A DNA stretch of 57,228 bases from Escherichia phage PHB10, in sequence record MK524177.1; one strand, written 5' to 3'. Position 1 is the first letter of the stretch. Every line of letters begins with the position of its first letter. Below the pieces are notes generated by a model that saw nothing but the letters and a program-made list of their open reading frames with translations, was not told the origin of the DNA and ran no database searches. Below, in pieces: positions 21,945 to 31,233 of this stretch. The position numbers and the translations under genes are program-made.

Positions 21945-22901
21945 TCATGTATTTTCAGGACAAAGATGCCGGCAGAACCAGTCAACAACCACATTGATGA
22001 CCTCGGGTTGATACCAGTGATAATCACCATGTTCGGCGCCTTCGATAAGTACGTAGTCCGCTTTATTTCCTTCGTCCAAAAGGCCTTCGTAAAGCGTTGC
22101 GCTCTGCTTTGGTGATACTAATGTATCTTTAGTGCCATGCATTATCAGGAATGGAGGTTTGCGCCCTCTAATATGTCCTATGGGGCTTGCATTTATCGCT
22201 TTCTCAGGTGTAGAAGCGATGGATGCGCCTGGAAAGTTCCTGAAAGCAACACCATTAATTAGCAGTGATTCCGTGACCGCAGGAGACTGATGCACTTTTT
22301 GACGGTGATCAGGAAAACCATCACCTATGTTACGCAGGTCTGATATTCCGTAAAGCGTGGCCACAGCCTGCACATCAGCGGACTGGCTGAGAAAATCGCC
22401 GTGTTCGAATGATTTATCGCCATTTGTGGTACCCAGCATCTGAGCCAGCCATCCTCCAGCAGAATCGCCAAATACACCAATTCGTGAGGGGTCAATACCA
22501 TAATCGGGGGCATGTTGACGAAGGTATCTTACTGCTGCTTTAGCATCTACTATTGGTGCAGGGAAGGTATCCGGGATTGTCCTATATTCTGCCGCAGCAA
22601 CAACAAAGCCAGCCTCCGCCAGGGCCATACGCATTTCCATAAATTTGTTGTGCTCAGCCGTCATAAATCCTCCTCCAGGAAAATAGATGATGGCTGGTTT
22701 CAAAAAACTGGTACGAGGCACCAGAAAAGACATGTGTAAATGCCTGACCGAGCGAGTGCTTTTAACTGTCTCATAAACAACATCGCTGATGTTATCTATC
22801 GGGTTACGCGTCATAGCGACCTGAATAATTTCTGCTCCATGAACATAACCGGGAAGATTGTAATGATCAGAAGATACTGCGCCAGTTTGTTTAGAAATCA
22901 T
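21945..22901 (-). CDS. alpha/beta hydrolase (esterase/lipase-type)
   Basis: GDSAGG nucleophile elbow, HGTKD, oxyanion region FPGGGF. Confidence 0.8.
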   Translation of the reverse strand: MISKQTGAVSSDHYNLPGYVHGAEIIQVAMTRNPIDNISDVVYETVKSTRSVRHLHMSFLVPRTSFLKPAIIYFPGGGFMTAEHNKFMEMRMALAEAGFVVAAAEYRTIPDTFPAPIVDAKAAVRYLRQHAPDYGIDPSRIGVFGDSAGGWLAQMLGTTNGDKSFEHGDFLSQSADVQAVATLYGISDLRNIGDGFPDHRQKVHQSPAVTESLLINGVAFRNFPGASIASTPEKAINASPIGHIRGRKPPFLIMHGTKDTLVSPKQSATLYEGLLDEGNKADYVLIEGAEHGDYHWYQPEVINVVVDWFCRHLCPENT

Positions 22902-23090
22902 AAAAAGCTTCCATTGAAAACAGATCTCCGAAGAATCGAATCCTCTATAACTATATCATCCCGTACGAGTCTAGTGAGATCGGTTCTTTCCCTGTATAAC
23001 TAATATAAATATTCATTCTCAAGACTTATCCATGCAAGTACAGTATTTGTGACAAATCCTGGGAAGTGATGTTTTTTCATTCAGAAACAG

Positions 23091-23525
23091 TTACGTCATT
23101 GGATTGCTGTTATTTTTGTTATATTTCAACCTGTCTTCACGAAATCGATCCGCATTTTCGACGATCCAGGTCCATAGCGGAATCATACGAACAAGCAGTT
23201 CCATACCAGTATCAGACAGCTCGTATTCGACTCGTGGTGGAACTTCATTGAAATCATGGCGGATAACAAGGCCGTCCCGCTCAAGTTGTCGTAATGTGCG
23301 CGTCAGCATGCGCTGAGTCACTCCGTGCATACGCCTACCAATCTCAGCATGGCGTAGTCTTCCATACACGCCAAGAGTGTTGATAACACCCAATGACCAG
23401 CGACTTCCTGCATGGGTCAGCACTTCCCGCCGTAAGCCATCATCATCGTCTCTCAGCCCCTTACAAACATCCTGCGAATACTGAAGAATCTCGTCCCGAT
23501 CCATTTCACTGACTCCCGGTATCAT
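23091..23525 (-). CDS. HxlR-family winged-helix transcriptional regulator
   Basis: Motif WSLGVINTLGVYGRLRHAEIGRRMHGVTQRMLTRTLRQLERDGLV; divergent from the NmrA-like gene; start probably 23525. Confidence 0.75.
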   Translation of the reverse strand: MIPGVSEMDRDEILQYSQDVCKGLRDDDDGLRREVLTHAGSRWSLGVINTLGVYGRLRHAEIGRRMHGVTQRMLTRTLRQLERDGLVIRHDFNEVPPRVEYELSDTGMELLVRMIPLWTWIVENADRFREDRLKYNKNNSNPMT

Positions 23526-23594
23526 ACATGTACCTTCTTTTTTAGCCTGTTGTGAATTGCTAGAGTGGCGCAACAATTCATGTAAGGCCAGATT

Positions 23595-24545
23595 ATGAAC
23601 AAAATTGATCTTAACACTACGTCTGAAAATATCCTCGTGCTCGGTGCCGGTGAGCTGGGCCTCCCCGTTCTGCGAAATCTTGCCCTTCGGGCAAAAGATT
23701 TGAAGGGAACAAAAATCAGCGTGCTGTTGCGCGAAAGTACCTTAACTTCAGATGAACCTGGAAAAAAATTAGTTCTCAAGGAAATCAGAAACCTCGGTAT
23801 TAATATTGTCACAGGTGATCTCGTCATGAGTTCTGTCGACGATTTGGCCAGCCTCTTTGCGCAATTTGACACAGTCGTTGGCTGCACGGGGTACGCGGCT
23901 GGAATAAATACACCGATGAAACTGGCGCAGGCGGCTCTGCAGGCGCGGATTCCACGATATTTTCCATGGCAGTTTGGTGCCGATTTTGATGCCATCGGAC
24001 GCGGCAGTCCACAAGACATCTTCGACGCGCAGATTGACGTGCGTGATTTACTACGCAGCCAGCATGAAACCGAGTGGGTCATCATTTCGACCGGCATCTT
24101 CATGAGCTATTTGTTCGAACCAGACTTCGGTGTGGTCGATCTACAGAACGATACTGTTCACGCACTCGGCAGTATTGACAACACCATGACGCTGACAACA
24201 CCGGATGATATCGGGATGCTAACGGCAGCGATTGTATTTAACACTCCTCGCATTCGGAACGAAATTGTATATATCGCCGGTGATACACTGACCTACGCAG
24301 ATGTGGCAGATAAGCTGCAATCAGCGCTTGGCCGTCCTTTCAGCTGCACGGAATGGAGCGAACAACATCTGATGGATAAACTGGCGCTCAACCCGCAAGA
24401 CATGATGTCTAAGTATCGTGCCGTTTTTGCACAGGGGCGGGGAGTTGCTTGGGATAAAAAGCAGACATTCAATGAACGCCATAACATTCCGGTTACCGAT
24501 GTGGCAGCCTGGATTAATGCAAACCTGATCCCAGGCAGCTCATGA
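23595..24545 (+). CDS. NmrA-family NAD(P)-binding oxidoreductase
   Basis: N-terminal Rossmann motif VLGAGELG; typical HxlR/NmrA divergent pair. Confidence 0.75.
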   Translation: MNKIDLNTTSENILVLGAGELGLPVLRNLALRAKDLKGTKISVLLRESTLTSDEPGKKLVLKEIRNLGINIVTGDLVMSSVDDLASLFAQFDTVVGCTGYAAGINTPMKLAQAALQARIPRYFPWQFGADFDAIGRGSPQDIFDAQIDVRDLLRSQHETEWVIISTGIFMSYLFEPDFGVVDLQNDTVHALGSIDNTMTLTTPDDIGMLTAAIVFNTPRIRNEIVYIAGDTLTYADVADKLQSALGRPFSCTEWSEQHLMDKLALNPQDMMSKYRAVFAQGRGVAWDKKQTFNERHNIPVTDVAAWINANLIPGSS

Positions 24546-29619: not shown

Positions 29620-29736
29620 GATTGTTGTTTTTTTAGCAATTCTGACTTTCAAAATTAACAATTTTTATGCAACAAATCCAGCCATATACTTAACCGCTCT
29701 AAAACATCACTGAGTTAAGAAAAGTCAGGATTCACT

Positions 29737-30702
29737 ATGAAAATGAGAAGGTTGGGGAGCCAGGGGCTTCTCGTATCGGAAATGGGACTGGGGTGCATGG
29801 GCATGGATCATGGCTATGGCTATTCAGTTGACATCCGTAAACGAACAAAACTGATTGATAAGGCTGTGGAGCTGGGTTGCAACCTGTTCGACACTGCCCC
29901 TATTTACGGATTTGAAAATGAAGAACTTCTGGGTATTGCGCTCAAAAAACACCGGGACAGCGTCGTCATCGCGACCAAGTTCGGCGTAACCGGGATGGAA
30001 ACTATTGATGGTCAACTGGTGCCAGTGTTAGACAGCAGTCCGGCGTCTGTCAGAAAGCAACTGGAAGGTTCACTCAGTCGCCTTCAAACCGACCATATCG
30101 ACCTGTTTTATCAGCATCGCGTTGATCCAAAAGTTGAGCCGGAAGTCGTGGCGGGATTAATGAAAGAGCTGATCGCCGAAGGCAAAATAAAGTACTGGGG
30201 CCTATCCAATGCGCCAGCGTCTTACATACGGCGTGCCCATGCAGTCTGCCCGGTTACCGCAGTTGAAGATCAGTATTCGATGATGTGGCGTAAGCCTGAG
30301 CAGGATCTGTTTAAAGTCTGCGATGAACTTGATATTGGCTTTATGGCATACAGCCCGCTGGGTAATGGATTCCTGAGTGGTCAGGTGACAGTTAATACCA
30401 CCTACGGGGAAGGCGATTACCGGGGCATGATGGGGCGCTTTAAACCTGAGGTTATGGAAAATAACCAGTCACTTCTTAATCTAATCGCTGACATTGCCGA
30501 AAGAAACAACGCAACTTCGGCACAGGTTGTGCTCGCATGGGAACTGGCTCAGAAGCCTTATATCGTGCCGATCCCGGGAACTACGAAATTACACCGGCTG
30601 GAAGAGAATTTTCAGGCTGCAAATGTTCAGCTCAGTGATGCCGAATTAAATGACATCAATGAAGCTTTATCCAAGATTCAAATTGACGAAACATTCTTTT
30701 AA
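29737..30702 (+). CDS. aldo/keto reductase
   Basis: AKR-type motifs in a 321 aa ORF (LGCMGM, DTAPIYG). Confidence 0.85.
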
Positions 30703-30717
30703 AAATAAGAGATCGAA

Positions 30718-31233
30718 ATGAAAACAACTGTATTTGTTACCCATCCCAATATTCATCTGTCCCGTGTTAACTCGGCGCTGGCAAATAGTGCAGCTTCACT
30801 GCCCGATATTAATGTACGTTATCTGTATGACATGTATCCGGATGGTAAAATCGACGTGGCCGCTGAACAGGCTGCGCTGGAAAATACCGATCGTATTGTG
30901 CTGCAGTTCCCGATGCAGTGGTACAGCACGCCGCCACTTCTCAAGCAGTGGCTTGATGATGTACTGACCTACGGCTGGTCACATGGTGGCGAAACTCAGG
31001 CGCTGCATGGCAAGCAACTCATGCTGGCAGTTTCGCTCGGTGGTGCTGAGTCTGCGTATCAGCCTGATGGAGCAGCCGGTCATACGGTTAGCGAATATCT
31101 GCTGTCCTTTGAAACAATCTCCGGGTATCTGGGTATGCATTATCTCAAGCCTTTCATTACCGGCGGAAGTGCGACGATCACCGACGGGGAAATTGCGGCA
31201 CAGGCTGAACGCTACAAAACGGTATTAGTCTGA
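30718..31233 (+). CDS. flavodoxin-like NAD(P)H-dependent oxidoreductase
   Basis: 171 aa, flavodoxin-fold-like; 15 nt downstream of the AKR gene (operon). Confidence 0.65.
   Translation: MKTTVFVTHPNIHLSRVNSALANSAASLPDINVRYLYDMYPDGKIDVAAEQAALENTDRIVLQFPMQWYSTPPLLKQWLDDVLTYGWSHGGETQALHGKQLMLAVSLGGAESAYQPDGAAGHTVSEYLLSFETISGYLGMHYLKPFITGGSATITDGEIAAQAERYKTVLV

Follow-up and report, generated by a model that had tools for sequence, protein, structure and literature searches.

Temperate phages carry bacterial genes in several described forms. Morons, a concept of Hendrix, Juhala and colleagues for lysogenic-conversion cargo, classically comprise one or two genes, and in specialized transducing phages such as lambda gal and lambda bio the genome of a temperate phage carries one continuous stretch of the bacterial chromosome. 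P2-like phages and P4-like satellites possess cargo hotspots, i.e., fixed positions with conserved core flanks that accommodate dozens of mostly unrelated gene sets, many of them for anti-phage defense (Rousset et al., 2022; PMC9122126). In the Gifsy prophages of Salmonella, terminators and then a LexA box are found about 1.3 kb past the replication genes; this box controls dinI, an antirepressor and irsA, and induction requires it, together with LexA cleavage and the antirepressor (Lemire et al., 2011; PMC3121763). The antQ operon of Gifsy-1 has its own mapped start site (Hershko-Shalev et al., 2016; PMC4825925). In this study, we examine the sequence record MK524177.1 of Escherichia phage PHB10. 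Its 57,228 nucleotides, referred to as the window (positions refer to it unless another locus is named), contain ten bacterial genes, here called the island, between the replication gene P and the region that runs from dinI to the antiterminator gene Q.

We consider it likely that the island is lysogenic-conversion cargo, that it resides in a dedicated hypervariable slot of a Gifsy-like phage at a natural operon boundary, and that it was captured and spread by recombination. The slot is best illustrated by the prophage of E. coli 210205630, which is 91-94% identical to PHB10 and has the same gene order from int to attR, and in which 5.9 kb of other genes (encoding a restriction endonuclease, a SEC-C protein, a HEPN protein and a hypothetical protein) lie between P and dinI. 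The alignment of both phages also sets the limits of the island. The preliminary description, made from the sequence alone, had placed these at 21945 and 31233; the genes between these positions are real, but the segment that varies between prophages is wider (Table 1). Both flanks are colinear with this single E. coli prophage, which excludes that they belong to two different prophages, as had been considered before.

To survey the slot more broadly, IMG/VR was scanned with P, yielding 80 loci, none of which holds the PHB10 island. The 44 loci that span both anchors were compared together with the E. coli prophage. In these 45 loci the interval between P and dinI measures 2.4-9.4 kb and comprises 32 architectures and about 97 protein clusters, and the cargo often lies on the opposite strand. 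Defense-type contents include Dsr1, PifA, Septu PtuA, an AriA-like (PARIS-like) ATPase, PDC-S33 and PDC-M28; other contents are a glyoxalase, CMD, BLUF-EAL, an LprI-like lipoprotein, HNH, a CadC-like regulator, an AIDA autotransporter and a chaperone-usher fimbrial operon. A megablast search of the island with its flanks against the phage collection, which apparently lacks the PHB10 record, gave no matches. That the island splits an early-right operon, as had been described, is not supported: the interval between P and dinI holds unrelated cargo of 2.4-9.4 kb in every relative examined.

The break points of the slot are confined to short stretches. On the P side they fall between ~31404 and 31498, most of them at 31444-31491, just past the P stop codon, and on the dinI side between 21415 and 21493, most of them at 21440-21446; the dinI promoter region is kept in relatives up to ~21444-21493. 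Fragments of the P 3' end (60-130 nt, including ~25 nt past the stop codon) occur within many slots (L016, L017, L037, L038, L045, L058, L072, L090 and others), among them many remnants of about 80 nt. Because these fragments sit at the boundaries between cargo modules, cargo sets appear to have been stacked by recombination at the end of P, and the remnants single out this end as a recurrent junction for recombination. From these comparisons, the interval between P and dinI presents itself as a hypervariable cargo slot between conserved core genes. It resembles the P2 and P4 hotspots in its fixed position, its conserved flanks and its largely unrelated contents with many defense genes, but belongs to another type of phage and another locus, and in this Gifsy-like siphovirus it also holds fimbriae, autotransporters, enzymes of cyclic di-GMP (c-di-GMP) turnover and a metabolic/regulatory block. 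In Gifsy-like phages, the stretch from P to the LexA-dinI promoter thus emerges as a general cargo bay for defense systems, adhesins, signaling enzymes and metabolic blocks.

The likeness to the prophages Gifsy-1 to Gifsy-3 (PMC3121763; PMC4825925) extends well beyond the slot. A short repressor without a cleavage domain, RecE/RecT, a LexA box directly upstream of a dinI homologue, a small open reading frame (ORF) with a non-ATG start, irsA/DUF1367, Q, a tRNA-Arg downstream of Q and a dispensable stretch that separates the LexA box from the replication genes are common to both. The differences are that the interval consists of ~1.3 kb of small co-directional ORFs in Gifsy, compared to 10 kb of bacterial genes on both strands in PHB10; that the head and packaging genes of Gifsy-1 are lambda/21-like, whereas PHB10 has an SPP1/ES18-like terminase and capsid; that the small ORF of Gifsy-1 (73 amino acids) is not detectably homologous to orf80 of PHB10; and that the hosts are Salmonella and Enterobacter, respectively. 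Orf80 occupies the position of GftA/GfoA, and its homologues hold this position in mEp237 and in Klebsiella prophages.

This architecture bears directly on the expression of Q. The preliminary description had proposed that either Q expression was rewired or disabled by the island, or Q is driven from a LexA-controlled promoter downstream of it. The P/O genes on one side and DinI, DUF1367, RusA and Q on the other are supported by Pfam, and a perfect LexA box is indeed found upstream of dinI. On the Gifsy-1 record a CATAAT hexamer and then the antQ start immediately precede irsA. The irsA leader of PHB10 represents the equivalent position, and this leader with its -10-like hexamer is common to five phages, including PHB10, the E. 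coli relative, a Klebsiella prophage-phage and the plaque-forming mEp237. The genes from DUF1367 to Q overlap or abut and are contiguous with irsA and orf69, and no terminator-like site was found on the minus strand from 21400 to 18747. By homology with Gifsy, where the LexA-dinI operon and the antQ start both lie past the interval, Q would be located downstream of two candidate promoters, which fits the second of the two proposals. Since both lie distal to the slot, transcripts from pR would not need to cross the island, and Q expression is probably independent of transcription across it; the same arrangement may explain why the slot tolerates large, bidirectional cargo. In the model we propose, the early-right operon ends with O and P, and a separately promoted unit with the LexA box, dinI, the small ORF, irsA/DUF1367, rusA and Q follows, such that cargo of any size and orientation would fit at the boundary without interrupting a required transcript. 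The stretch from P to Q, with genes on both strands and the terminator at 21791-21812, is not an uninterrupted co-directional run. This corrects a lambda-centered expectation: in this group of phages Q is probably independent of read-through from pR, and large cargo at this site need not harm the lytic program. As previously noted, an N-like antiterminator is not evident: none of the three ORFs after the repressor matches such a family, and the first of them is acidic and Cys-rich rather than arginine-rich, yet this is a weak negative, N proteins being short and poorly conserved. An Rfam scan in and beside the slot revealed no known RNA and no IsrK-like small RNA (sRNA). In the conserved stretch ~60 nt upstream of the dinI -35 element, a palindrome, GTGTGGCCCACAC, is present at 21460-21480; a U-tract does not follow it.

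Alternatively, a recent insertion may have crippled the phage, either because pR can no longer drive Q or because the length of the genome prevents packaging, and only a decaying prophage would remain. The genome size (57.3 kb compared to ~50 kb in the closest complete relative) is in line with this, as are the rearranged or truncated P sides of some island loci (107 nt of P in L007, L008 and L010; TetR and alcohol dehydrogenase (ADH) genes in L009) and the ~20 of 80 IMG/VR prophage predictions that end at the P stop codon or at most 150 nt from it (11 exactly at the stop). For the latter, prophage callers that treat the sequence after P as host DNA are a likely, though conjectural, explanation, and one that the cargo slot itself would provide. 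Yet cargo occupies the site between P and dinI in every relative, up to 9.4 kb, the Gifsy model places the Q promoters downstream of the slot, and the same block with identical boundaries is found in several independent Enterobacter prophages, which speaks against a disabled Q. Furthermore, surveys of ORFs and Pfam domains identify the window as a complete lambdoid temperate phage with intact head, tail, lysis, replication and recombination ORFs. Tail gene M is split by the window ends, with its N-terminal 54 codons at 1-203 and its C-terminal 41 codons at 57105-57228, and ~70 nt of it are absent compared to the E. coli 210205630 prophage; because both ends fall within this one gene, the deposited genome is circularly permuted and almost closed. 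In Enterobacter chromosomes the SRAP side of the integrated phage meets host DNA at ~42506, whereas in PHB10 int adjoins it. The window thus contains attP and represents the excised or virion form; it was deposited, as far as the title of the isolation paper tells, as an isolated temperate phage. Taken together, a crippled phage is unlikely.

The island itself has a clear bacterial signature. All ten genes announced in the preliminary description are present as ORFs, and Pfam supports their families; none received an equivalog-level NCBIfam name, and the amidohydrolase was the only one to pass a subfamily cut-off. We used this amidohydrolase as query against one genome per species, which resulted in 77 loci, and found none of P, O, dinI, DUF1367, rusA or Q near them. 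The core cassette LysR-amidohydrolase-DMT(-SGL) occurs widely among Gammaproteobacteria. The complete set of ten genes, in unchanged order, is found in Enterobacter wuhouensis and in two representative genomes that bear the labels Serratia bockelmannii S3 and Pantoea coffeiphila 1480, confirming that the block is foreign to the phage; these chromosomal copies share 86-91% DNA identity by segment with window 21889-31277, and in Pantoea ananatis the homology reaches 31391. The genes around these copies are of an ordinary chromosomal kind and encode a glycosyltransferase, GGDEF and EAL proteins, a nitroreductase, YceI, an aldehyde dehydrogenase and one IS110 transposase. Judging from this colinearity, the island appears to be a contiguous piece of enterobacterial chromosome. 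The GC content, which had been suggested as a check, does not discriminate (0.45-0.55 in the island, ~0.53-0.55 in the flanks). The S. bockelmannii S3 and P. coffeiphila 1480 representatives (L094, L095) are 99.986% identical over 21.4 kb around the ten-gene block, which suggests that the transfer was very recent, that both share a plasmid, or that a genome was mislabelled or contaminated.

A search of the island ends for direct or inverted repeats and for a target-site duplication, which had been suggested as a check, gave only short chance matches; Pfam reveals no transposase or integrase among the ten genes. Because repeats, transposase and integrase are all absent at or in the island, capture by illegitimate recombination is the simplest reading, and we propose this as the route by which the block would have entered the phage. 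The block could also be a mobile element in its own right (a composite transposon, an integrative island or a satellite) that targeted the phage. A part of it (SGL'-DMT-amidohydrolase-LysR-LysR') is indeed bracketed by insertion sequences (IS) on E. coli plasmids, with 85% identity, and the IS110 transposase mentioned above lies near the chromosomal copy in L094. The phage copy, in contrast, is devoid of a transposase, an integrase, terminal inverted repeats and a target-site duplication, and its boundaries coincide with module junctions that are also used by unrelated cargo, making such an element very unlikely.

Compared to the classical forms of phage cargo, the island shares with morons that autonomous non-phage genes lie between conserved phage genes, are bounded by a terminator and differ from the backbone in composition or origin. 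It differs in that it comprises ten genes, ~10 kb and three regulators and corresponds to one piece of bacterial chromosome. The latter feature is shared with lambda gal and lambda bio; here, however, the captured DNA is not adjacent to att, replaces no essential phage genes and does not derive from the neighborhood of the integration site. The PHB10 island is thus an unusually large example of known phage cargo and not the sign of a broken phage. A temperate phage deposited as an isolate can carry, at an internal site, ~10 kb of regulated genes from a bacterial chromosome, far more than a moron usually comprises.

How the island has spread can be followed through its esterase, since the exact protein is recorded in 105 collection blocks. 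In the eight contexts inspected, the esterase is always followed by phage genes (dinI-Q-lysis-terminase), and in four of them (L004, L005, L006, L011) P/O are located upstream of the cargo. In L005 and L011 the island is the same and again lies between P and dinI. The junctions are alike base for base in independent assemblies, including the megabase-scale chromosomal contigs L005 and L011, and the left junction also recurs in L004 and L006-L010. These junctions bear on the possibility that the window is an assembly chimera, either through host DNA contamination or through two adjacent prophages that were misjoined. The wholly bacterial look of the cargo and the imperfect closure of the deposited contig, with the ~70 nt missing from tail gene M, would fit a chimera; junctions that recur in independent assemblies and flanks that are colinear with one E. 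coli prophage render it extremely unlikely.

The Enterobacter prophages L005, L007, L008, L010 and L011 share segment 21494-31450 at 99-100% identity. L004 and L006 contain a variant island, of which the left part is 99.8% identical and the DMT-amidohydrolase-LysR part only 86%; at the right end, genes for AraC, a major facilitator superfamily (MFS) protein and a 193-amino acid flavodoxin-like protein replace the end of the island, resembling another natural chromosomal arrangement. In L007, L008 and L010, 107 nt from the P 3' end remain in front of the island (at 1313-1420 of these loci), and farther upstream lies cargo of CMD or DUF4236 type that other slots also hold, an order that is readily read as stacked cargo modules. 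L009 (positions 1-1443 of a complete 5.04-Mb contig) has the variant island and late genes, with TetR and ADH genes in place of P and without a P remnant. This prophage may have been split by recombination between phage cargo and a homologous chromosomal locus.

Across the island-bearing prophages the island is 99.2-100% identical, compared to 92-94% for the Q-dinI region and ~91-92% for P-O. The tract without mismatches reaches beyond the island, across dinI and orf80 and into DUF1367, and its end point differs from prophage to prophage (20545-20990). Because the identity of the island exceeds that of the backbone and the tract ends differ among prophages, the island and its dinI-orf80 module are young, and several independent events of homologous exchange have carried them into backbones that had diverged. 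The recent arrival that had been supposed for the block is thereby borne out by its 99-100% identity across backbones that are 91-94% identical. According to our model, the later spread among related prophages would have occurred through homologous recombination within the P and irsA regions on either side, taking the dinI-orf80 module along. The block has in this way passed between diverged prophage backbones within the Enterobacter cloacae complex.

With respect to function, we would divide the island into three regulator/enzyme modules: the HxlR regulator with the NmrA-like reductase, followed by the esterase; a LysR regulator with the amidohydrolase, the DMT transporter and the SGL protein; and a second LysR regulator with the aldo-keto reductase and the KefF-like reductase. 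Families of this kind typically take part when cells respond to electrophiles, quinones, aldehydes and xenobiotics. The cargo probably helps to detoxify or catabolize small compounds that are electrophilic or xenobiotic. In the lysogen, the modules would be expressed from their own ligand-controlled promoters, while the terminator at 21791-21812, which had already been spotted near 21790-21812 and proves to be a canonical bidirectional intrinsic terminator, would insulate the LexA-controlled candidate antirepressor operon from transcription in the direction of the esterase.

Two further possibilities concern this relation between cargo and phage. The genes could be auxiliary metabolic genes that act in the lytic cycle through read-through, rather than in the lysogen. 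The esterase, HxlR and SGL-DMT-amidohydrolase genes are co-directional with the early-right and late operons, and no terminator is present after P. Three dedicated regulators and a divergent promoter layout, on the other hand, imply autonomous ligand-responsive control, part of the island genes (those on the plus strand in Table 1) oppose phage transcription, and the same genes exist in ordinary chromosomal contexts. A lytic-cycle role is therefore highly improbable. A small chance is given to the idea that the island and the SOS/candidate antirepressor module form one co-transferred functional unit, in which leakage through the terminator couples prophage induction to the electrophile or xenobiotic signals sensed by the cargo regulators. 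Such coupling is conceivable since the hxlR-esterase transcript is co-directional with dinI, a single terminator lies between them, and the zero-mismatch haplotype spans the island, dinI and orf80. If true, PHB10-type phages would be chemically inducible via their own cargo.

Several points weigh against the proposal that the island is lysogenic-conversion cargo in a Gifsy-like slot. The cargo promoters are deduced from the divergent layout of regulators and operons, and expression is predicted; promoter-like matches in the region are no commoner than in shuffled sequence. The terminator lies within a 395-nt stretch (21494-21888) that matches island-bearing prophages only, and the true donor of this stretch was not found. 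A scan of all slot variants for a canonical terminator just upstream of the dinI promoter detected one only in the PHB10 window and in L037, and insulation is accordingly proposed for PHB10 and not as a general trait of the group. Orf80 shows no BLASTP similarity to the 73-amino acid ORF of Gifsy-1, and its candidate role as antirepressor follows from its position. The evidence for infectious PHB10 particles is the title of the isolation paper. Finally, the genome is ~7 kb longer than that of the E. coli relative, and that its 57.3 kb fit in a single headful-type virion is assumed.

The host assignment also deserves attention. Several proteins of the window match GenBank entries QBJ007xx of PHB10 exactly. 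Proteins and prophages that are nearly identical to those of PHB10 are, with few exceptions, annotated in members of the Enterobacter cloacae complex (bugandensis, asburiae, hormaechei and others), with integrated prophages that are 98-99.6% identical, while a search of 5,426 complete E. coli genomes with 21000-32500 yielded as best match a single relative of 91-94% identity. The host genus stated for PHB10 may thus be wrong, and on this evidence PHB10 would be a Gifsy-like temperate phage of the Enterobacter cloacae complex that was deposited as an Escherichia phage. The attR site was recovered via the SRAP gene; exact-protein look-ups with the integrase (two start choices) and RecT gave no match, and attL was thus not recovered. 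Just outside attR in Enterobacter chromosomes (L170 at 7557-7694; also L171, L175 and L177), a 138-nt fragment is 84% identical to the 3' part of the integrase gene (window 42219-42368) and is probably left over from a related prophage that occupied this site earlier. The features of the window are collected in Table 1.

Table 1. Positions of the island, its genes, the flanking control elements and the other landmarks of the PHB10 window
Feature	Position	Strand	Evidence or remark
Variable segment (island), 9.96 kb	21494-31450		Homology to the E. coli 210205630 prophage stops at 21493 and restarts at 31451
Alpha/beta-hydrolase esterase (BD-FAE/Abhydrolase_3)	21945-22901	-	Pfam
HxlR-family regulator	23091-23576	-	Pfam HxlR 6e-20; divergent from NmrA-like gene; called as 144 amino acids in relatives
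NmrA-like NAD(P)-binding reductase	23595-24545	+	Pfam NmrA 2e-19
SMP-30/gluconolactonase/LRE-like protein (SGL)	24653-25600	-	Pfam SGL 2e-63
YdcZ-type DMT transporter	25612-26085	-	Pfam DMT_YdcZ 4e-32
Amidohydrolase (TRZ/ATZ-like deaminase superfamily)	26100-27497	-	Pfam; NCBIfam PRK08204 subfamily, 408 bits, above the 391-bit cut-off
LysR regulator 1	27640-28527	+	Pfam HTH_1 and LysR_substrate; divergent from amidohydrolase operon
LysR regulator 2	28726-29661	-	Pfam; divergent from the aldo-keto reductase (AKR)/flavodoxin-like pair
Aldo-keto reductase	29737-30702	+	Pfam Aldo_ket_red 1e-72
Flavodoxin-like NAD(P)H oxidoreductase (KefF-like)	30718-31233	+	Pfam Flavodoxin_2 2e-43; NCBIfam KefF 190 bits, below cut-off
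Bidirectional intrinsic terminator	21791-21812	both	9-bp GC-rich stem, tetraloop, U-tracts on both strands; between esterase gene and dinI promoter
dinI promoter (read from sequence)	21385-21433	-	-35 TTGCAA 21428-21433, -10 TATAAA 21405-21410, 17-nt spacing
LexA box, perfect, CTGTATGTATATACAG	21385-21400		Upstream of dinI, overlapping the promoter
dinI homologue, first gene of SOS operon	21139-21363	-	Pfam DinI 3e-22; ATG at 21363
orf80, 80 amino acids, GTG start	20790-21032	-	Between dinI and irsA; candidate antirepressor by position
Extended -10 in irsA leader, TGATATTAT	20800-20808		Upstream of irsA
irsA/DUF1367 (NinB-like) homologue	20148-20750	-	Pfam DUF1367 4e-90; 82% amino acid identity to Gifsy-1 STM2620
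rusA	19577-19951	-	Pfam RusA
Antiterminator Q	18747-19580	-	Pfam Antiterm; overlaps rusA
Q, rusA, DUF1367, dinI block	18747-21384		
P	31482-32168	-	Pfam; end of early-right operon
O	32165-33115	-	Pfam; early-right operon
Short HTH repressor, 134 amino acids	34021-34425	+	Pfam HTH_3 only, no peptidase S24 domain; PHROG transcriptional regulator/repressor families
P, O, ydaT-like, ydaS-like, short HTH repressor	31482-34425		Past the island
Tape measure	1083-3995		
Capsid	7560-8513		
Portal, terminase, lysis genes	11865-14136 (terminase)		After capsid in window order
tRNA-Arg	17805-17881		Between lysis genes and Q
recE, recT, int	36419-42485		
int	41238-42485		
attP region	42486-42811		Between int and SRAP gene (42812-43486)
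SRAP, umuDC-like genes, then tail fiber, J, I, K, L	42.8-57.1 kb		

Some minor observations concern other parts of the genome and its relatives. In the Enterobacter locus L177 (13345-16675), the umuD end of a prophage is fused directly to a segment with dinI, glyoxalase and BLUF/EAL genes (homologous to window 20331-21444), which is a rearranged or recombinant prophage pair. A second cargo region of low GC content (0.38) adjoins attP at 43500-45900 and contains two cold-shock-domain genes, a match to the cspA thermoregulator RNA (43911-44310) and a YnfU-like small protein. Matches to the sRNA STnc100 occur at 45642-45843 and, downstream of the tRNA, at 17258-17463. The SRAP (YedK-like) gene and a umuD/umuC-like Y-family polymerase pair (45927-47695), located between attP and the tail-fiber genes and also present in the E. 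coli relative, are SOS-related cargo besides dinI. Within the tail operon, a DUF6694 lipoprotein gene (204-1007) lies between the tape-measure gene and tail gene M, and it is kept in the E. coli relative.

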